Assembly: GCA_020348445.1 (NCBI GenBank) | Contig: CP070751.1 | Span: 4,032,662 to 4,096,661, forward strand | DNA from: Thermoplasmata archaeon | GTDB taxonomy: Archaea > Thermoplasmatota > Thermoplasmata > GCA-020350865 | Reading direction: 5' to 3' | Length of the DNA stretch: 64,000 nucleotides | Part shown: piece after piece, positions 1 through 11,796 of the stretch | Position numbering within the stretch: position 1 is the stretch's first letter | How the letters are laid out: the number at the start of each line of letters is the position of its first letter | The notes under the pieces: model-generated | Told to the model about the DNA's origin: nothing | The model's input: the letters and a program-made list of their open reading frames with translations, nothing else | Databases searched by the model: none | Position numbers and translations under genes: made by a program

Positions 1-3000
1 ATCCACATTTTCTGCATTGTCAGCAGGTGATGTTATACTTATTTGTGGTGCAACATAGTCACCGGTAGTTGTGAATGACCAGGGATTGGGAACCATGCTT
101 GGATTAAGGTCATTTCCTGAGATATCCTTTGCACCTGTAATCTGGAATATATACATGGTTTTCTGTGCAAATTCATTATGTGAAAATGTAGCAATTTTAT
201 CATTATTGGTCCATGTTATGATCCAACCCAATGGGTCTGGAGAACATGCATATGTAACGGAGGTTGTATCCATCTGTTCATTGAAATATACTACTATAGC
301 TGCGGTAGTCGTATCATTTTCCGAACCGTCCGCAGGTGAGGTGGAGGTGATCTCGGGCCCTACAACATCTAAAGTAGTAAATGACCATGGATTTTGAACT
401 GGTCCGTCCACAAGATCGTTTCCGCCAATATCTTTTCCGCTTGTGATTTCAAATAAGTATGTAGTCTTACTACCAAAATCGTCATGTGTATATGTAGCTA
501 CAGAGTTCATATTGCTCCAAGATACATCCCACCCGCCAGGATTTGGTGAACACGTATATGATACGGTGGTGATATTCATAGGCTCACTGAACATTACCAC
601 TATGCTCTTATTCAAGGCAATATCGACATAATCATCTTCAGGCGACGTTAATATTATTGTGGGCTCCACAACATCTTTGGTTGTAAATGAGAATTGATAG
701 GGTTCTTTTAGTTGATTTCCCAGCACGTCTTTCGCATCTATCATGATATTGATTATGTAGATTGTTAAGGAACTTAGCGTAGATGATGGCTCGAAGGAAA
801 CAGTCATTTCTCCGTTACTCCAGCTGAAATTCGTTGGTGTAAGTCCGCCTGAAATTGTAATTGCATTTTCAGTTGCAGTAAGGTTCATTTTAATTGAGAA
901 GGTAATGGATATCAACGGTGTTACAGAGATATTCAAGTCCCCATCTTCTGGTGTTGTGTTTTCTACATGGGGTGCTGTGATGTTCGCGGGTTCTATTAGT
1001 GGGTACCAATCTTTACTGCCACCGCCTGGAACATCATACGGAATATCTCCAATACCGTCCTCATTTGCATCAAAACCTGTATAATCGTCCCACCAGTTGC
1101 CTTCTGCACTGTCATCCCAGTCGTTTAACTGAGTTGTGGAATCATGAGCGTTCTGGAGGTTGTTTTTAAAATTGTTATGATGCACTATGTTATCTACTGA
1201 GTCTGTGATGTTCATGCCAAGTTCGGGGTGGTCCATAATATCGTTACGAATAATGGTATTTATATTTGAGTTACCATTAACAAAGATACCTGTTTGGTTA
1301 TTTGAGGTAATGTTGTTATTCTGGATTTTGTTACTATGTGAAGAGTTTGTTATGTTGATAGCACTCCAATTGTTGTTGGCTATTTTATTATAGCTGATTG
1401 TACTGGAATTGGTGGAATCTAAGAGAACGCCGTCGTTGAGGTTATTGGAAATGTTGTTGATATAAACTATATGCGAGTCTATTCTCAATAATTTAATGCC
1501 GATTAAGTTGGAGAAGATCGTGTTTTTATATAGATGTGAGTTTTCCCATGATACAGAGGTGTTATCGGATTGTGCGTAAATCCCAGAACCATTGGTTTGC
1601 AGACTGATGGTATTCGAATATATGAAATTATCTTGAACATATAAGTTGCCGGTCCTGGAGTTGCCATACATATAAATGCCATTTTGGTCGTTTGAATAGA
1701 TTGTGTTGGAATATATATCATTGTATTGGAAATAGGCATATCTGTCTACTCTATCGGAATCAAAAAAAACATATATGTACAAGCCATTTTGATTGTTTGA
1801 ATGGATTATATTAGAATGGATATTATTATATTGAAGCTCAAGGACATACCAGCGAGTATGGATAAATAAATAGATACCATTTTGATCATTTGAATGAATA
1901 GTATTAGAATATATGTTATTATATTCAAAATAGGAACCGTCGACTCCATAGCAGTGAAAAAAAATACCGTTTTGGTTGTTGGAAAAAATAGTATTGGAAT
2001 ATATATTGTTGTATCGAAAATAAGAGCATTCATTTGGAATATAACTGGTGTTGAAAAAGATTCCATTTTGGGAGTTTGAATAGATAGTGTTATTAAAGAT
2101 GTTATTATATTGGAAATAATACCATTCCCACTCAGCTTTTAAGTTGAAATGAATGCCATTTTTATTGTTTGAATATATGGAGTTATTGTTTACTTTATTA
2201 TATGAAATATATAAAGTATAAGAGTAAGAGAAGACTTCGAAATAAATGCCATTTTGATTGTTAGAATTTATGGTATTATTGTGGATGCAATTGTATTGGA
2301 AATACGGGGAATAGGTATATTCTTCGGCGTAGGTGTTAAAATAAATACCATTTCTATTGTTTGAATATATTGTGTTAATGAAGATATTATTATATTGAAT
2401 ATATGAATGATGTCGGCAGTAACGATCAGCAAATGTTTTAAAATAAATGCCATTTTGAGTATTGGAATATATTTTATTGGAATATATATTATTGTATTGG
2501 AGATTCAATGTTGAATCTGTTGAATAAACATAGAAATAAATCCCATTATTTTCGTTCCCGGAAATTGTGCAATTTTGAATAGTGTTATTTTCTTGGATCT
2601 CACTCCCATTAAATATTATGCCATTTAATCCATTTTCGGAGATATTTGAATCGGTAATATTAACATAAGTTGCACCATAAAGTTCGATTCCATCTTCTGA
2701 GTTATTCCAGATTTCAGAGTTTTTGATTGTAATGTTAGATACAGAATCCCCCGAGTAAATTCCCGCGTTCCCTTTGTTTTTAGATATATTGCAATCCATA
2801 ATATCCACATATAATGAACCTTCTAGGTCAATACCTGATCCATCGTTATCTCGGATAATACAGTTTTCAATCCATTGATTCTCCGAAGCACAGCCTAAGT
2901 CAATCCCCGTGCCGTCGTTGCCAATGATTCGGGAATCTGCAATATTGTTGTTGCCATTACCATTAAAATCGATTCCATTGTCCTGATTTTCAAATACAGT

Positions 3001-3735
3001 TACATTTGTTATTTCTATATAGCTTGAATTCAAACCCAGTTCGATTCCACCCCCGGTATTTTTTGATACGTATGTGTTCATGATAGTATTATTACTCGAG
3101 GATCTCACGTAGATTCCAAAAGCCCGATTCTGGTTTACAAACGATTTATTTATAATGTTATATTCCGAGATCAGCAAGGTGATGCCATTGCTGTAGCTGG
3201 AGGTCACAGTTGTATTGTATATGATGTTACCTGATGTTTCTTTGAGGTAGATCCCATCGCCTGTATTGTTGGATATCTTGCAGTTCGAGATGCGGTTTTT
3301 TGTGTTTGCACACATGATGTACAGTGGGTAGTCACCAAATGAGATTTCGCAATAATCCATTATGTTGTTCGCTCCGTGAAGTCTGATTCGATGCCAGTCA
3401 CCCTTTGCAGGCACGCCTTGATTTGATGTGAACAGAATCGGTGATCCGGGTGTGCCCTGGGCAATGAGCGTGCCATTCACGATCAAGCTGTAAAGTCCAT
3501 CGAACTTCACCTCGACTCCCGGCTCTATGGTCAATGTGACTCCAGGCTCCACAGTCACATCTCCGGTGACGATAAATGGGCTATCAGTTTGATACCATAT
3601 CGTATTCAGGGTAATTGAGCCACTCACATAAGTCGGGCCAGGTGCTCTTGCTTGATTTGTTACCGCAAATAATCCTAAAAAACCACAAATTACGAGCAAT
3701 CCCACAATTCCAGTAGAGATTATTCTGTTCTTCAT
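1..3735 (-). CDS. Large secreted surface protein with parallel beta-helix (PbH1/NosD-like) repeats followed by Ig-like (Big_5/SbsA-like) domains; 3' end runs off the window
   Basis: Not in the ORF track, probably because it has no stop in the window. ATG at 3735 after a GGAGG RBS gives signal peptide MKNRIISTGIVGLLVICGFLGLFAV. Then repeated 'NxIYSNxxNGIYF' motifs, and 'DYVAPQISITSPADNAENVD' in the same frame at the window edge. Frame checked by hand at 3735-2400, 2460-2160 and 60-1. Confidence 0.85.
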   Translation of the reverse strand, partial: MKNRIISTGIVGLLVICGFLGLFAVTNQARAPGPTYVSGSITLNTIWYQTDSPFIVTGDVTVEPGVTLTIEPGVEVKFDGLYSLIVNGTLIAQGTPGSPILFTSNQGVPAKGDWHRIRLHGANNIMDYCEISFGDYPLYIMCANTKNRISNCKISNNTGDGIYLKETSGNIIYNTTVTSSYSNGITLLISEYNIINKSFVNQNRAFGIYVRSSSNNTIMNTYVSKNTGGGIELGLNSSYIEITNVTVFENQDNGIDFNGNGNNNIADSRIIGNDGTGIDLGCASENQWIENCIIRDNDGSGIDLEGSLYVDIMDCNISKNKGNAGIYSGDSVSNITIKNSEIWNNSEDGIELYGATYVNITDSNISENGLNGIIFNGSEIQENNTIQNCTISGNENNGIYFYVYSTDSTLNLQYNNIYSNKIYSNTQNGIYFKTFADRYCRHHSYIQYNNIFINTIYSNNRNGIYFNTYAEEYTYSPYFQYNCIHNNTINSNNQNGIYFEVFSYSYTLYISYNKVNNNSIYSNNKNGIHFNLKAEWEWYYFQYNNIFNNTIYSNSQNGIFFNTSYIPNECSYFRYNNIYSNTIFSNNQNGIFFHCYGVDGSYFEYNNIYSNTIHSNDQNGIYLFIHTRWYVLELQYNNIHSNIIHSNNQNGLYIYVFFDSDRVDRYAYFQYNDIYSNTIYSNDQNGIYMYGNSRTGNLYVQDNFIYSNTISLQTNGSGIYAQSDNTSVSWENSHLYKNTIFSNLIGIKLLRIDSHIVYINNISNNLNDGVLLDSTNSSTISYNKIANNNWSAINITNSSHSNKIQNNNITSNNQTGIFVNGNSNINTIIRNDIMDHPELGMNITDSVDNIVHHNNFKNNLQNAHDSTTQLNDWDDSAEGNWWDDYTGFDANEDGIGDIPYDVPGGGSKDWYPLIEPANITAPHVENTTPEDGDLNISVTPLISITFSIKMNLTATENAITISGGLTPTNFSWSNGEMTVSFEPSSTLSSLTIYIINIMIDAKDVLGNQLKEPYQFSFTTKDVVEPTIILTSPEDDYVDIALNKSIVVMFSEPMNITTVSYTCSPNPGGWDVSWSNMNSVATYTHDDFGSKTTYLFEITSGKDIGGNDLVDGPVQNPWSFTTLDVVGPEITSTSPADGSENDTTTAAIVVYFNEQMDTTSVTYACSPDPLGWIITWTNNDKIATFSHNEFAQKTMYIFQITGAKDISGNDLNPSMVPNPWSFTTTGDYVAPQISITSPADNAENVD

Positions 3736-3866: not shown

Positions 3867-4412
3867 TCAAAGCATTTCCTTCAATATTTTCTTACTTAAT
3901 ATGTCAAAAGCAAAATTCACATTAAGTCCTGTTTTCGCTGAAGAGAGATAGGCTCCGGGGCTTTCATACCCGGCTGCAAAGCTCTTAATCTCATTTAATC
4001 CTATTTCTTGGAAATCCAAAAGATCGCTTTTATTTCCAAGAAACACTGTTGGGATCTCATCGTCACCACTTTGTACTCCATCTATCCACCCGTCTAAACC
4101 TGGTAACGTTTTCTCCCTTGTGTTGTCACATACCGCCACAATTCCCTGGACCCCTAAAAAATACGCTTTCTGAAGTAACTTACGAAAGTCTTGTTTTCCC
4201 ATGATATCCCATATATAAAGTTGGACATCGACGGGCTTTTTTGTTTTTGGGTGCTGAATTGTTATCTTTTTTGTTGTGACCTTTGTTCCTATTGTGCAAA
4301 TGTAGCTATCTGAATATTCATTAAAAACATATCTTCTTATTAAGCAAGTTTTTCCTACAGCCAGGTCACCTACTAGACAGATTTTGAATTTGAAAAGGTG
4401 GGCTTCTGACAT
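3867..4412 (-). CDS. Rab-like small GTPase (Ras superfamily)
   Basis: G1 GDLAVGKT, G2 TIG, G3 WDIMG, G4 NKSD, G5 SAK; 181 aa. Confidence 0.9.
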   Translation of the reverse strand: MSEAHLFKFKICLVGDLAVGKTCLIRRYVFNEYSDSYICTIGTKVTTKKITIQHPKTKKPVDVQLYIWDIMGKQDFRKLLQKAYFLGVQGIVAVCDNTREKTLPGLDGWIDGVQSGDDEIPTVFLGNKSDLLDFQEIGLNEIKSFAAGYESPGAYLSSAKTGLNVNFAFDILSKKILKEML

Positions 4413-5342: not shown

Positions 5343-5566
5343 GAATTAAAGAAGAATTGAATTGCACCTGGCAAATCCTGGATTTATACCTATGAATCAT
5401 TCCTATTTATTCTAAAATACACTAGAATTACCGATTTTGATTTTCACTCGTGATTATCATTAATAAAAAGAAATCCAAATTATCTGGGTGTATGGAACAT
5501 ATATTCTAAAATGATAATATTGTAAATACGTTTAAAATATATGAATAAGAATAGATAATTGTTACA

Positions 5567-8500
5567 ATGAGTCAGGAAGATTTTGATGATGATGATGATT
5601 TTGGCCTAGGAGCCTTACTCGAAGACGAAGACCTCTTCAAACCAAAGAGCGGAAAGGGTCATAAAATAGGTACAGAGGATTCAGATGCCGATTTGGCAAA
5701 AGAGAATCTCGAGCTAATTGCATTGAAAAAACAGCTCGAAATAGATCCTAAGAACGTTGATCTACTTATTAAGGGCGCCAATTTACTAAGGGGTACAAAA
5801 AAAATCGATGATGCTATAGATTACATTGATAGAGCACTGGAGGCAAATCCAAATCATGCAGAGGCTTTGAATATGAAGGGTCAGCTGCTTGTTGACTTGA
5901 ATTCAGCAAGTGAGGCTATACACTATTTCACCAAAGCGATCTATGCCAATCCTCAACTTGAAGCGGCTTGGTTAAACAAGGCCATCGTGTTGGAGCAAGA
6001 AGGTGCTGTAAATGAGGCGCTTTACAACCTGGATATGGTTTTAAAGATTAATCCTGATAATGCGAAAGCTAGAAACCTAAGGAGCTTGATTTTGGAGATC
6101 GAAGTTAGGCCAAAGCGGGCCTGGTTATTTGTTGGCACAGAGGAAACTTGGAACGAGAAGTTCAAAATAGGTGGATCTTGGGGAATGCATGAAAATGCAC
6201 TGGATATTGAGTCATTCCTAAATGTGGGAAAAGGAGATTTGATAATAGCTTTTAAAAGGAAACCCGTGAACATGATCTTCGCAGTTATGGAGGTTCGCAC
6301 CCCAATATACACTGACTTCTCAACTATGTGGCGTCATAGAATAGATATAGAACCAAGAATAAGGTTGAAAAAACCGATCTCCTTAAACGTACTCAAGAGA
6401 TCCCCTCAACTTGTTGAGATATGGAACTTTATAAGGAACCCTGATACGAAAAGGACGGTCTTTGAAATAGAGCCTGAGAGCTGGGAATTACTCAAAGAGT
6501 TGATATTTAGTTATAATTCCGATTTAAAAAAGGATGCTCTTGAGATGGAGATCAGGAGCAAAGACATGGCAATGATATATGACATGGATATAAATGCCAT
6601 TACAAACAAGGTATTTGTTCCACCCCGGGTGTTGAACGAGATTCAGACGCATTTAAAGAGCGGAAGGAACATAATCCTGTACGGACCTCCTGGATCTGGA
6701 AAAGAACAGCTTGCACAACTAATAGCAGAGCAAATCTGCGGTAAGAGATTTAAAAGCGAAGGTCATGATTTTACAAATTTCACGGCACAAATGGCCAATC
6801 CCCTTTGGAATGATGAGGATATCATGGGATTCTGGGAAAACCAAGGTGACAAAACCGTATTTCGCAAGGGGTTCGGCATTCAGGCCATTGAATTGTGCGA
6901 GGACTCCATCAGAAATTCCAATAGGCCCCATTATCTTATCATCAATAAAATGAACAAACTGGATCTGGATAGAGCTTTTAACAGGTTCTTGAATGTCGTT
7001 GGTGAAAAGGATACATCTGTGGCACTATCGCTCCACCGTGGTGAAACCCTCACCCTCAGAGTGCCGAAAGAATTCCGCATCATTGGGACGGCAGATTCAG
7101 ACGAATGGTCGATACCTGAGAATCTTCTTCCTCTCAGAGGTCAATTTTCATTTATCGAGGTTAGTGTACCAGAGAAATCACTTGAATATGAGGAGATTCC
7201 GTTTTTGGTGAGGGAGCGGTTGGTCTATCTTGGCACATTGAATCAAGATGATCTGTTAAAACAAGAATTCAAAGGTGCAGAAATCACCATGTCAAGGTTC
7301 GATAATGACCCTGATGGAGAAATACAAAAGGCATACGACAAGCTAATTGAATTCGTATCCAAGGACAAGTACCCTCCCAAGGGAACTGTTCTGCCAAGGG
7401 GTATTAGAACGTACAGGGCCATTGGTACAAGACTTCTTGTGGAAACCATGCTGTGTGTTGCAAATGCCCCCTATAGAATCAGCAAGGAAAAAGCCCTTGA
7501 GGATGCAATAATGTCCATTTTCCTACCCATTTTGGAAAAGATGGAAGCTGCCGAGCTTTACAATATAGAACTTAAGGCAAAAGAGGTGTTTGGCTTAAGA
7601 TCGAATGTGGTGGATATGATTACGGCTTTAATAAGCATGCAGAAAGGTCCTGGCGAATTGGAGGACGAGGACGGGATGAAGGTTGATGACTGGACAGATG
7701 AAGACGAGGATGAGGATGCTTATATATCAAATAAGGATGTTGAAGCCGTTGAGATAAATTATGATATCGATCTCACCCCAATATTTGATCACCTATCGAT
7801 TTCCAAGAAGACATTGGACCAAATACTGGTTAATCTTGAAAGTGGAAGAAATATAATCCTCTATGGAGCTCCAGGATGCGGCAAGACAAAGGTTGCTACA
7901 CTGCTTTTGGCGCTGATTTGTGGTAAAATGACCCTAAAGAATGGGCAGCAAAGACCCAACTTCACAATCGTCACTGCCAATGCCGAATGGGACAACTACG
8001 ATATAGTTGGAGGTGTTGCACCTAAGGTTGATGAATATACAAAGGAAATCTCATACGAGTTTCGGGATGGATGCGTTACCCAGGCGGTCAAGGATTGTTT
8101 AAGATCCCTTAAGAGGATAGGAAGACCCCATCACTTGATCATAGATGAGTTCAATCGCGCCAACATAGACGAGGCTTTTGGAAAGCTCTTTACGATTTTC
8201 GAGTACAGAGATACCCAGGCCTTGCTCACCTCCGAGGAAAACAGAGGCGACGCGCTCTATCTGCCCCGCCAATTTCGAGTCATTGGGACCATGAATGTGC
8301 AGGACAAGAACACGCTGTTCGATATAGGTCATGCCCTGATGAGAAGGTTCGCCTTTATCGAGGTTGGGCTGCCTGATAAGGAGGACGAGTTCTCTCGTAT
8401 GCCACATTTCGTGGAATTACGGGCCAAGGAGATGGGAATTATCTTAAAAGGGGATAAGACAGAAAAATCCCTGTTCAGAGGCGATCCCGAAGGAAAGGCG

Positions 8501-8839
8501 GATGCCGAGTACCGAAAACTCATGAAGTTCTTAGAGGAGGATCCAATGCCTGAGGAAGGAATTGAGACATCTGTTGGTGTCCGAACATACAGAAAGATCG
8601 GGACAGCCCAGGTCATAGACTGCGTGATTTGGTGCCTAAAGGCCGGCGGGGATTATTCAAAGGAAGATGCAATGCAGGACGCAATCGTGGCCAACATACT
8701 TCCCCAACTTGAAAACCTGGAAAAGGCACAGATATCGAATATGTACATCAGGGCTGTGGAGGTTTTTACTGAAAGATCAAAGGTGGCCCGGGCCTTGGAT
8801 CGAATGCTCAAGAGCACAACTTTGTCAGTTTTTAGTTAA
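5567..8839 (+). CDS. mcrB: McrB-like protein: acidic N-tail, TPR repeats, EVE (PUA-like) domain, degenerate AAA+ GTPase, acidic linker, intact AAA+ GTPase
   Basis: TPRs about aa 50-175; EVE-like segment about aa 183-315 (W..GD...F.......V...W..RI..EP...L..PI.L..LK). Domain 1: GPPGSGKE / IINKMNK / GTADSDE. Domain 2: GAPGCGKT / IIDEFNRA / GTMNVQD / ALMRRF. Confidence 0.85.
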   Translation: MSQEDFDDDDDFGLGALLEDEDLFKPKSGKGHKIGTEDSDADLAKENLELIALKKQLEIDPKNVDLLIKGANLLRGTKKIDDAIDYIDRALEANPNHAEALNMKGQLLVDLNSASEAIHYFTKAIYANPQLEAAWLNKAIVLEQEGAVNEALYNLDMVLKINPDNAKARNLRSLILEIEVRPKRAWLFVGTEETWNEKFKIGGSWGMHENALDIESFLNVGKGDLIIAFKRKPVNMIFAVMEVRTPIYTDFSTMWRHRIDIEPRIRLKKPISLNVLKRSPQLVEIWNFIRNPDTKRTVFEIEPESWELLKELIFSYNSDLKKDALEMEIRSKDMAMIYDMDINAITNKVFVPPRVLNEIQTHLKSGRNIILYGPPGSGKEQLAQLIAEQICGKRFKSEGHDFTNFTAQMANPLWNDEDIMGFWENQGDKTVFRKGFGIQAIELCEDSIRNSNRPHYLIINKMNKLDLDRAFNRFLNVVGEKDTSVALSLHRGETLTLRVPKEFRIIGTADSDEWSIPENLLPLRGQFSFIEVSVPEKSLEYEEIPFLVRERLVYLGTLNQDDLLKQEFKGAEITMSRFDNDPDGEIQKAYDKLIEFVSKDKYPPKGTVLPRGIRTYRAIGTRLLVETMLCVANAPYRISKEKALEDAIMSIFLPILEKMEAAELYNIELKAKEVFGLRSNVVDMITALISMQKGPGELEDEDGMKVDDWTDEDEDEDAYISNKDVEAVEINYDIDLTPIFDHLSISKKTLDQILVNLESGRNIILYGAPGCGKTKVATLLLALICGKMTLKNGQQRPNFTIVTANAEWDNYDIVGGVAPKVDEYTKEISYEFRDGCVTQAVKDCLRSLKRIGRPHHLIIDEFNRANIDEAFGKLFTIFEYRDTQALLTSEENRGDALYLPRQFRVIGTMNVQDKNTLFDIGHALMRRFAFIEVGLPDKEDEFSRMPHFVELRAKEMGIILKGDKTEKSLFRGDPEGKADAEYRKLMKFLEEDPMPEEGIETSVGVRTYRKIGTAQVIDCVIWCLKAGGDYSKEDAMQDAIVANILPQLENLEKAQISNMYIRAVEVFTERSKVARALDRMLKSTTLSVFS

Positions 8840-8932
8840 CGATCAAGGGAAGGGATTTAAATCGAATGTTATAATGTATCAATTCATGCACTGTCCTCGG
8901 GTAAACCCATTGAGAATGTTAAAGAAAACCAG

Positions 8933-10531
8933 ATGATACTGCTTAGAATAGAGAATCACGGGCACAGAATAGAGAGATCCTCAATATGGTTGGGCAGGAC
9001 ACGTGTTTGGATCCTTGATGAACTAAAGGAAAATAGCATCCGGGAAATCACATTAGATGTGGGAGATTATGTGGGGAATAATATTTTATCTCTAAGAGAT
9101 GCAAATGGCGAGGAGATCAGCAAGCCCATTCCATTTTTCATCGAGCCAAATGGCCTTTCCTCAGAGGAGTTCAAGAAGATCAGGCACGAGAGGATTCCAT
9201 CACTTCTTAAGAAGTTCGGGGCTGAAAATGTCCATGATGTGGTTTATGGCGGAGGTTATGCTACATATCAAATAGATGTTGAAGATTATGCCATTGATGA
9301 CCTTCTCAACCATTACAGCAAGGAGCTTATTGAATTGACAAAAAAGATCACTGAATGTCTCACGTATGCTAGTCAAAAAGAAGTTCGTAAGTACAAGTCA
9401 GAAATTAAAGGAAAGATCAAGTGGCAAAAAACCGTTAGAATGAGGTTCCAAAAGGGACTCTCCCATACCACTTCCCATGTCTGCGAAAGGAGAAAACGGA
9501 CGTTTATAACACCGTCGAATCTTCTTCTCTTAAAGTTCCACCTCGAAGTATTAACCGAAGGTGCCACAATGCTATCCAGGATCCAGCAAAGAGAAACTGA
9601 GAAGATGAGATGGAGGGGGATATATAAATTGGACAGCAGCCGTGAATATGACAAAAAGGTTCTTGATACACTCTCTGATCTAAGAAGTGTTCTTCGTGTT
9701 CATAGATACTTTTTAACAAAGGATAAATTCAGGGAGGCCCTACCCAGATTGAGGTTCATTCCCAGGGACAATCCATCCCTTATAAGGGAGGCAGAATTTG
9801 AGGCTGTGCGTGCAAAGAACCGTTCATACAAACCACTTGTTACCCTTTACAAGGATTTTATCAATAATTTTCATCCCACATTTATGAAGACCGTTCCAAT
9901 AGACACTCAGAGAACACGTGATTTCTACAGGGTCTGGGCCATGTGTGAGTTGGTAAATGCCCTTGATCTCAGATCCATAGGTCATACAATGAGGGAATTT
10001 AAAAACCGCCATGAAACAGTATTTCTCTACTTCCAGAACATAGAGTCGCTTCGCCATCCCTGGAGCGAGATTTCCGATGAATCGGCCTTATATATGGGAG
10101 GAGATATGAAAGCCGAGGACTTATCCTTTATCGGTCCAGAAATCTATCTCAGATACGAGGGTATCGATGTCTTTGTGGACACGATATATGGTGATTTTAA
10201 AGGGGGATTACCCAGAGAGAAAATCTATGAGGCCCTGGGTTACATGTATGACTTTGAATTCAAGGTGGGTATCGTGCTTTATCCGGGTTTGAGGTTTCAT
10301 ATCAAAACCGATTTAAGAGTCCCTTCTGCCTACAAGATTCTAATTGAGGCGCCTTTGCGGCCAGAAACAATTAAGACAAAGAAACAATTGGAGAAAAGGA
10401 AGGATTACTTAAGATATCTTGTCTGGGCAGCTGTGATATTGCATAGAGTCGCTAGAAAAAAAGAGGATATGGCTCGTGCTATTAAGAGCATCACAAGGAC
10501 AATTGAGGTAAAATATTCTATTAAGACATGA
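8933..10531 (+). CDS. McrC/DUF2357-like partner with a degenerate PD-(D/E)xK nuclease domain
   Basis: Directly follows mcrB. McrC-like motifs 'VGDYVG', 'KGKIKWQKT', 'TPSNLLL', and C-terminal 'PEIYL...VFVDTIY...YEALGY...GIVLYP'. Confidence 0.7.
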   Translation: MILLRIENHGHRIERSSIWLGRTRVWILDELKENSIREITLDVGDYVGNNILSLRDANGEEISKPIPFFIEPNGLSSEEFKKIRHERIPSLLKKFGAENVHDVVYGGGYATYQIDVEDYAIDDLLNHYSKELIELTKKITECLTYASQKEVRKYKSEIKGKIKWQKTVRMRFQKGLSHTTSHVCERRKRTFITPSNLLLLKFHLEVLTEGATMLSRIQQRETEKMRWRGIYKLDSSREYDKKVLDTLSDLRSVLRVHRYFLTKDKFREALPRLRFIPRDNPSLIREAEFEAVRAKNRSYKPLVTLYKDFINNFHPTFMKTVPIDTQRTRDFYRVWAMCELVNALDLRSIGHTMREFKNRHETVFLYFQNIESLRHPWSEISDESALYMGGDMKAEDLSFIGPEIYLRYEGIDVFVDTIYGDFKGGLPREKIYEALGYMYDFEFKVGIVLYPGLRFHIKTDLRVPSAYKILIEAPLRPETIKTKKQLEKRKDYLRYLVWAAVILHRVARKKEDMARAIKSITRTIEVKYSIKT

Positions 10532-10547
10532 TTGCCGATTTTCCCTT

Positions 10548-11429
10548 TCAACCTTCTTTTTCTGGATTTAATCCTTGAAATTCTCTGGTATCTTTGAGCT
10601 TTCTTAGGGTCAGATCCTCCTTTGCCTTCTTATAGAGGGTTTTGTCCATTTCTATTGCGCATTTCAGTTGTATCAGGGCTTTCTTTTTGTTTCCAACCCG
10701 AAGATATATGCGTGCCTTATTGAAATACGCATTTGCATAATCAGGGGCAAGCAATATCGCTTTATCAACTGCAGAAAGACCGGATTTGAATCTGCCAAGG
10801 AATCCTAGAACAACGCCATAATTGTTCCATATCTCGGCCTTGTTGGGATCGATTGCCAGCGCGCGCTCGAAATATTCCACAGCCTTTTCCAACATCTCTA
10901 TGCTTTCCCTCTCCTCCCTAAGCTGAGAAAGCAGTTGATAGGCTATGCCTTCGTTGTTTAGGGCGTTTAGGTTATTTGGATCGTCCTCAAGGGCTTTCTC
11001 ATATGCCATTATGGCATCCTCAAACTTCAACTGAGTGGATGAAATAATCCCCAGGGTAACCCATATATTGGCCTTGTTCCCTCCAACTTCAAGTGCTTTA
11101 CTAAGGAACTCCACAGCATCATCAAACCTGTTCAAATGGGCATACAGGTACCCCTTGGTCTCCCAGCCTATGGCATATTCGGAGTCCAGTTCCAGAGCTT
11201 TGTTTATAGCGTCATCTGCATTTTTAAAATCCCCCATTTGATAATAAACTAGACCTATGTTATTCCAAGCTTCTTTATCGCTTTCTTTCCCCTGAAGTGC
11301 ATTTTCATAGCAGCTAATGGCATCCTCAAATTCTCCTTTTTTTTCGCAATCAAGGCCTTTTAATAGCCACTTTTCGATTTCAATTCGCGGTTTGTTTTCT
11401 ATTGTCTTTTTCTTCTTTGTAATAGGCAA
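10548..11429 (-). CDS. TPR-repeat protein
   Basis: About 7 TPRs (AWNNIGLVYYQMGDF, ALNNEGIAY, IWNNYGVVL); TTG start. Confidence 0.85.
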   Translation of the reverse strand: MPITKKKKTIENKPRIEIEKWLLKGLDCEKKGEFEDAISCYENALQGKESDKEAWNNIGLVYYQMGDFKNADDAINKALELDSEYAIGWETKGYLYAHLNRFDDAVEFLSKALEVGGNKANIWVTLGIISSTQLKFEDAIMAYEKALEDDPNNLNALNNEGIAYQLLSQLREERESIEMLEKAVEYFERALAIDPNKAEIWNNYGVVLGFLGRFKSGLSAVDKAILLAPDYANAYFNKARIYLRVGNKKKALIQLKCAIEMDKTLYKKAKEDLTLRKLKDTREFQGLNPEKEG

Positions 11430-11796
11430 TTTTGCACCCCCGAGTCATTTTCAAAATTCTCTGGAGAATGAGGCTATATTAAGGATTTACGAGAAATAGC
11501 AAAAACTTTATCCTCGTATTATCACTATTGATTCTTTGAGGATAATGCAATTTTTATTTGTAGGTGAGATGTTGATTTCGGAACCGATTAATGTAATTAT
11601 CTTTAATAAGGCTCAACTTCAATTTCCTCGTTTTCCCCTTACCAGATCCAAATATTATCAACTTTGATAATTAATAAAATATATCTTTCTTTTCTCGGAA
11701 AGTTAATATAAACGGAGGAAGAAAAAGGCCTCGGAAAATCACGTTTGATTATCGTATGGGAATTTTTAAACTTACATATAACAATATAGTATAATC

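Follow-up and report, generated by a model that had tools for sequence, protein, structure and literature searches.

A putatively nuclease-dead McrC homologue and its TPR-EVE-tandem McrB partner in a Thermoplasmatota archaeon

We analysed a window of 64,000 nucleotides (contig CP070751.1 of assembly GCA_020348445.1, positions 4,032,662 to 4,096,661) from a Thermoplasmatota sediment archaeon, in which the open reading frame (ORF) at 8933-10531 of the forward strand had been predicted to encode a McrC-like protein lacking its nuclease residues. The ORF encodes a McrC homologue, as indicated by its predicted fold, by profile-profile alignment and by transitive homology, and its PD-(D/E)xK-fold domain is retained without the catalytic set. 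The gene immediately upstream, which the original prediction had missed as a partner of this kind, encodes a degenerate and a canonical McrB module in tandem with an EVE reader domain. We favour, with moderate confidence, the reading that the locus is a nuclease-dead two-gene module derived from McrBC, which would read modified nucleic acid without cutting it itself. Judging from the residues at the catalytic positions, action without cleavage is likely.

The translation of 532 amino acids (aa) is free of stops, and it carried the motifs named beforehand where they had been claimed: FYRVW (residues 331-335), GPEI (401-404), and VDTIY (415-419), together with the scaffold motifs KGKIKWQKT (159-167), TPSN (193-196), YEALGY (432-437), and GIVLYP (446-451). 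Family scans were of little use. The McrC-like protein (P0001) had no usable family match in Pfam, PADLOC or NCBIfam, neither PF10117 nor PF09823 (DUF2357) matched it at E up to 1 in Pfam, and nothing was found when the host genome was searched with PF10117. The sole family-scan match was to DUF6671 (E 0.065) and was not usable. Sequence searches of the PDB with phmmer and with the family profile returned no McrC, and the matches to Vipp1 and RadA were at chance level.

Profile-profile alignment was more informative. The family has few members: 14 proteins at 56-100% identity were retrieved when 5.8 billion proteins were searched with a word index, and an exhaustive profile search across 1.84 billion cluster representatives yielded no more than 32 matches. 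When the 13-sequence family alignment (A1) was compared by hhalign with 11 canonical PF10117 McrC ORFs from genomes of the phylum (A3), residues 145-453 of the McrC-like protein were aligned with a probability of 90.2% and an E-value of 1.5e-6. The alignment paired GPEIY with PDI, VDTIY with DAKY, KGKIKW with RGRI, NRSY with RLNxxY, and GIVLYP with LxYP; MAFFT also placed the named motifs on McrC motifs. Furthermore, the family profile (A2) reached a bona fide McrC from a genome of the same phylum at 1e-9, and this protein itself matched PF10117 at 2e-70. PF10117 matched the C-terminal part of 7 of the 19 library proteins scanned (P0033 and P0036-P0041; 18.8-24.3 bits), although P0041 alone of those seven exceeded the PF10117 cut-off of 23.9 bits.

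The predicted structure pointed in the same direction. An AlphaFold (AF2) model built on 32 family sequences had a predicted local distance difference test score (pLDDT) of 86.6 and a predicted template modelling score of 0.78; it superseded a first model on 13 sequences, which was poor (pLDDT 66.5). The five top PDB matches of the model by VIA-align were all McrC chains, three from E. coli (6ut6_G, 6hz4_M, and 7vsr_M) and two from T. gammatolerans (6ut5_G and 6ut7_G), with Z from 11.2 to 9.6, and an earlier, weaker model searched with Foldseek gave the identical top four McrC chains. The finger/DUF2357-type region matched E. coli McrC with Z 10.6-11.2 over residues 120-502, and T. gammatolerans McrC (6ut5_G) with Z 10.2 and a root-mean-square deviation of 3.9 for 140 residues over 118-311. 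Residues ~328-500 matched the PD-(D/E)xK nucleases AF1548, Can2, EcoT38I, Bax1, and AspBHI (Z 6.2-8.4). Niu et al. (2020, PMC7680126) describe how the McrC finger plugs the McrB hexamer and inserts an Arg or Lys that stimulates hydrolysis, the basic residue being R263 in T. gammatolerans McrC and K157 in E. coli McrC. In the McrC-like protein, the Arg of canonical RLNxxY was paired with A294, between R293 and K295, by hhalign only.

Subsequently, the catalytic positions were compared in a motif table of 31 alignment rows, 12 of which belong to the window clade and eight to distant relatives. The window clade has 15 members at 55-100% identity, namely these 12 together with L101, P0013, and P0014. 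The distant relatives read E (in YELW), PD, and DxK in eight of eight rows. When the window protein was aligned by MAFFT with the distant relatives matching PF10117, R333 fell on the Glu of YELW, E403 on the Asp of PD, and I418 on the Lys of DxK, so that the Glu and Lys are missing and PD has become PE, as had been predicted. The equivalence of the helix Glu is less certain, since hhalign shifted it by some turns relative to the MAFFT pairing with R333 and placed it nearer E339. All 12 window-clade rows read R, then P followed by E or D, and then D, H or Y (in 7, 4, and 1 rows, respectively) followed by T and by I or V. The helix position is thus R, and the lysine position I or V, in every row; L101 and P0014 have the same motif, and P0013 lies outside the alignment. 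More distant family members show DAD, DTY, EPN, ITL, EAR, ECQ, or NSH at the DxK position. The possibility had been raised that most orthologues keep D.K and that the change would be only a strain-level loss. The lysine is missing across the clade, and hence the loss is not a strain-level one; it is old and clade-wide.

The substituted domain is nevertheless constrained. All 13 orthologues of A1 have the full length; they are 55-87% identical, with a mean column identity of 70%. L101, a metagenome locus, is the only orthologue for which DNA was available, and its synonymous divergence (dS) from the window is saturated, so that only the nonsynonymous divergence (dN) was used. Between the window and L101 (75% identity), dN was 0.166 in the nuclease-like domain and 0.197-0.201 in the rest of the protein (0.197 in the helical part). 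The nuclease-like domain is thus the slowest-evolving part of the McrC-like protein. In a sister lineage with unsaturated dS, dN/dS was 0.06-0.135 for the nuclease-like domain, compared with 0.075-0.089 for the gene as a whole. Because 14 open orthologues at 55-88% identity share the substituted motif, the catalytic loss is old and was tolerated under constraint.

The McrB-like partner (P0002) was recognised by Pfam through AAA_5 (1.4e-28), TPR_1 (2.6e-13), and EVE (8.3e-8). The EVE match (PF01878) reached 32.8 bits against a cut-off of 23 and covered profile positions 3-143 of 145. The NCBIfam McrB model NF008457 scored 98.7 bits, under its equivalog cut-off of 637. With phmmer, residues 740-934 matched E. 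coli McrB (6hz4_A) at E 7e-17, and module 2 matched T. gammatolerans McrB in the PDB at E 1.8e-12. The two McrB-like modules are 34% identical to each other (E 1e-70), which indicates an internal duplication. Module 2 has the canonical motifs GAPGCGKT, IIDEFNRAN, GTMNVQDK (NxxD), and ALMRRF. Module 1 reads GPPGSGKE, keeps the P-loop lysine, has NK in place of the Walker B DE, and is without MNxxD and RRF. In all ten partner orthologues, whose module 2 is 55-93% identical, the domain order and the degenerate/canonical pattern were the same and the module 2 motifs were identical or nearly so. These motifs suggest that module 1 is a conserved pseudo-GTPase. The B-like and C-like genes are adjacent in the window and in five of five relatives' loci; five further B-like/C-like orthologue pairs point indirectly to their pairing. 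The features of the locus are collected in Table 1.

Table 1 Features of the locus in the window.
Feature	Position	Strand	Basis or remark
McrB-like partner (P0002), 1090 aa: TPR, EVE, degenerate McrB module, canonical McrB GTPase module	5567..8839	+	Pfam, NCBIfam, phmmer
TPR repeats, residues ~40-175	5684..6091	+	several TPR Pfam families within 53-170; PDB TPR proteins
EVE (PUA-like modified-base reader) domain, residues 186-310	6122..6496	+	PF01878
McrB-like module 1, degenerate, residues 321-710	6527..7696	+	internal duplication; motifs
McrB-like module 2, canonical, residues 711-1090	7697..8836	+	motifs; PDB matches
Former 5' end of McrC-like gene	8840..8932	+	translation compared with orthologue N-termini; contigs of three runs identical
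McrC-like gene, putatively inactivated PD-(D/E)xK site	8933..10531	+	532 aa
Immunoglobulin (Ig)-like beta-sandwich, N-terminal, residues 1-72	8933..9148	+	six model strands; VIA-align Z ~6 to beta-sandwich domains
McrC finger/DUF2357-like region with long helical insert, residues 77-325	9161..9907	+	has KGKIKWQKT, TPSN, AKNRSY; VIA-align, hhalign
PD-(D/E)xK-fold domain without catalytic set, residues 326-475	9908..10357	+	model order alpha-beta-beta-beta-alpha-beta
R333	9929-9931	+	helix Glu position
P402-E403	10136-10141	+	PD position
D416-T417-I418	10178-10186	+	DxK position
C-terminal helical hairpin, residues 483-527	10379..10513	+	helices 483-508, 513-527; pLDDT ~83-96
Convergent TPR protein, 293 aa, conserved neighbour, possible third component	10548..11429	-	TPR_1 1.7e-38

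In the reading that we prefer, the EVE domain would pick modified DNA or RNA, and the complex would translocate or clamp on the nucleic acid with no cutting of its own. The retained nuclease-fold domain might then serve for dimerisation or nucleic-acid binding, and the downstream effect may run via TPR-mediated partners. Owing to the tandem modules, a ring would be expected to consist of three chains and not six. Several points weigh against this reading, and they are given here and with the competing explanations that they favour. Two steps of the scheme are purely conjectural: three tandem McrB chains would form a pseudo-hexamer in which dead and live sites alternate, and the McrC-like finger would plug this ring and stimulate GTP hydrolysis as McrBC does. 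In addition, the scan of the flanking ORFs revealed no recognisable defence, effector or nuclease gene, which leaves the output of the machine without an explanation.

The pair could instead be a domesticated cellular machine that has no part in defence, that is, a housekeeping GTPase pair for modified RNA or DNA or for protein or membrane remodelling, of which the window would hold a variant. We regard this as unlikely, though it is the alternative to be taken most seriously. It draws on a small-genome order of the phylum, for which the sampling covered 401 genomes of the phylum, 45 species genomes of the order, 34 genomes in the motif tally, and loci L014-L018, with G261 and G246 included. 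Family-profile matches were found in 12 of the 401 genomes, eight of them within one family of ten. In the order, the McrC-like gene was present in 38 of the 45 species genomes and in 8 of the 9 that are at least 90% complete, and is thus near-core; these relatives match the family profile at E 1e-157 to 1e-176. Canonical McrC, on the other hand, has a scattered distribution (15 of 401 genomes, and none of the ten in that family). The McrC-like protein of the order is ~700 aa long with a low-complexity tail, and its gene is adjacent to and overlaps that of a McrB partner composed of a zinc (Zn)-ribbon, 7-11 hydrophobic segments, and one McrB module that is 46% identical to module 2, with no nucleic-acid reader. 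The housekeeping surroundings are kept between genera of 35% and 63% G+C content (GC): a GAPDH-like ORF follows in five of five loci (two of them checked with Pfam), and GINS51-like, tRNA-intron endonuclease, and L15e genes lie nearby. The low whole-gene dN/dS given above is in keeping with such a role.

The host genus behaves otherwise. The pair is absent from four of four other genomes of the genus, one of them complete, and lies in a variable stretch; window positions 5567-11429 have no DNA match in three congeners, whereas the flanks do match. Accordingly, the pair behaves in this genus as an accessory, conflict-type element. The window copy has lost its start codon, as described below, and its partner bears an EVE reader of the type found in Type IV restriction, EVE-McrB being given as the most common EVE architecture in defence (PMC7641849). 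Moreover, the near-core relatives mostly keep the lysine, and hence they may work differently from the window clade. Three proteins labelled Planctomycetes (P0063, P0064, and P0159; ~700 aa) were also observed, in which DUF4340 is joined to an AAA_5 module that shares 46-49% identity with module 2; the active-looking McrC-like relatives P0033-P0041 may have these proteins as partners.

The same lysine bears on another explanation, in which the protein is still a nuclease: E339, E403, and D416 (H416 in some orthologues) would form a metal site, water or another residue would replace the lysine, and the locus would be an odd EVE-guided Type IV enzyme. E339 is invariant in the family, residue 403 is acidic in 30 of the 31 rows (the exception being G in P0022), and 7 of the 12 window-clade rows retain D416; a metal might therefore still be bound. 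Some PD-(D/E)xK enzymes, such as BamHI and BglII, do lack the lysine. Of the 34 genomes of the sister order, 27 have the motif PE..E(A/T/C)K, five have ECQ, and two have EAR, at a dN/dS of ~0.1, and the EVE-McrB architecture noted above would suit a restriction enzyme. The lysine position, however, holds a hydrophobic residue and no polar substitute in any of the 12 clade rows, residue 416 is H or Y in five of them, and the helix Glu is R in all. The drift of DxK across the wider clade also looks like relaxed catalytic constraint on a constrained fold. We therefore consider retained nuclease activity in the window clade quite unlikely. Since the lysine is kept in 27 of the 34 genomes, nuclease death does not extend to the whole family and would be a feature of the window clade.

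The gene had been described as full length and not decayed. Its 532 codons are indeed open, but ~30 N-terminal codons have been lost. The 93-base spacer between the two ORFs is in frame with both and reads RSREGI*IECYNVSIHALSSGKPIENVKENQ, and the 31 codons upstream of the called ATG are in frame and conserved with the orthologues. Where the orthologues have their start ATG, the window has AGG (8846-8848), giving REG versus MEG, and an in-frame TAA (8858-8860) stands where they carry R or H. At the lost start, the window and the contigs of three public runs, which come from two studies, have the same letters. With the ancestral start and these codons lost, the called gene opens at an internal ATG. 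The window copy may consequently be on its way out, and this too counts against the preferred reading. A decaying relic in the host genome, that is, a former restriction module that first lost its nuclease activity, then its start codon, and is now without function, would account for the AGG and TAA in the contigs of all three runs and for the absence of the pair from the congeners, but it is improbable given the open frame, the intact partner of 1090 codons, the fourteen open orthologues with the same substituted motif, and the several close orthologues that are likewise called from starts near the window ATG.

A broader proposal, to which we give only tentative credence, is that one McrBC branch in Thermoplasmatota no longer serves restriction, with a reader/remodeller in the window clade and a membrane-bound, near-universal cellular form in the sister order. 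In the window this would comprise a pseudo-GTPase/GTPase trimer with the EVE domain as reader, a TPR platform, and a dead McrC cap, and the machine might act on modified DNA or RNA by marking it, clearing it, or passing it to TPR-bound partners. If true, a McrBC-type motor would here have a task in the cell other than restriction. The biological output of the window module may be defence signalling or a cellular role.

The surroundings of the locus were also examined. A TPR gene converges on the McrC-like gene, as had been noted; a TPR orthologue, 65% identical, occupies the same convergent place after the 75% identical McrC-like gene in L101, where a DUF5658 gene also follows (64% identity). 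This synteny within the clade covers two genomes, the window and the partial locus L101. A profile search with A1 for related loci found no relative in genome contigs and one, partial, in metagenome contigs; window positions 5400-11500 are present in sediment metagenomes, and the public runs listed as holding them include no RNA run. The neighbours comprise a beta-helix surface protein, a Ras-family GTPase, a methyltransferase, the convergent TPR protein, a DUF5658 membrane protein, a PAS histidine kinase, EF-2, S7, and S12. The methyltransferase, which had been described as a small-molecule type, matched Methyltransf_11 (E 5e-8), and congeners carry it elsewhere, without the pair. The GTPase (3867-4412, minus strand) is a small Ras/Roc-family protein (PF00071, 3.2e-28) with several paralogous DNA matches in congeners. 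Its presence had suggested an Asgard host, but this was rejected, as EF-2 of the host shares 88-91% identity with metagenome-assembled genomes labelled Thermoplasmata or Methanomassiliicoccales. The surface-type protein (1-3735, minus strand) is very large and extends past the window; it has eight beta-helix stretches, NosD, and three Big_5 domains, and lies in a low-GC stretch (0.29-0.31 around 1500-3000). The host genome (G000) is one contig of 5.16 Mb with a completeness of 81.7%, which is unusually large for the phylum sample; the congeners are 2.3-3.7 Mb.

McrBC is the textbook GTP-driven restriction motor, and what makes it a valuable model is the coupling between the McrB ring and the McrC nuclease. 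A ring, a finger, and a nuclease fold that stay constrained after the cutting residues are lost, together with a pseudo-GTPase, would constitute a natural separation-of-function variant. Such a variant could reveal the role of the motor apart from cleavage, whether in sensing, clamping, signalling, or remodelling. The membrane-anchored near-core relatives, in turn, suggest cellular roles of McrBC-type machines outside defence.

Compared with McrBC of E. coli and T. gammatolerans, the window has the same order, in which the gene of an NxxD AAA+ GTPase is followed by that of a protein with a finger and a C-terminal PD-(D/E)xK fold. The top structural matches are McrC chains, the partner matches McrB chains, and a reader is fused to McrB as in EVE-McrB (PMC7641849). 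The differences are that R, E, and I stand for the catalytic E, the D of PD, and the K of DxK; that the McrB protein has TPR repeats and a tandem of degenerate and live modules; that the McrC-like protein adds an Ig-like domain, a long helical insert, and a C-terminal hairpin; and that the Pfam McrC models fail to recognise it. The pair of the small-genome order shares with the window the McrC-like family, the adjacency of the genes, and the related McrB module. It differs in the membrane-anchored Zn-ribbon partner with a single McrB module, in being near-core, and in mostly keeping the lysine.

The original prediction had called the system undescribed, which overstates the novelty of the concept. 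Bell et al. (2024, PMC11090510) described McrC homologues of CoCoNuT types II and III-B/C that retain an inactivated PD-(D/E)xK domain and also have coiled-coil inserts and Ig-like domains, and in which HEPN RNases or other partners supply the activity. According to that account, CnuC of types II, III-B, and III-C resembles the window protein in its nuclease fold without the catalytic motif, its N-terminal Ig-like beta-sandwich, and the helical or coiled-coil inserts in the DUF2357 region. The McrB signature of CoCoNuTs is given there as NxD, whereas the window has NVQD (NxxD). The CnuH helicase, HEPN RNase, Hsp70-like, SmpB-like, and zinc ribbon components reported for CoCoNuTs were not found in the scanned window ORFs. 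The term "tandem GTPase" is absent from the main text of that paper, and no description of a TPR-EVE-tandem McrB or of a membrane-anchored McrB was found in the literature, although the CoCoNuT supplements might list such branches. As far as these published accounts go, the concept of a nuclease-dead McrC is already in print, the window clade would be a second, independent case of nuclease inactivation in a McrC homologue beside the CoCoNuTs, and the TPR-EVE-tandem architecture is a new variant of the McrBC-derived module.

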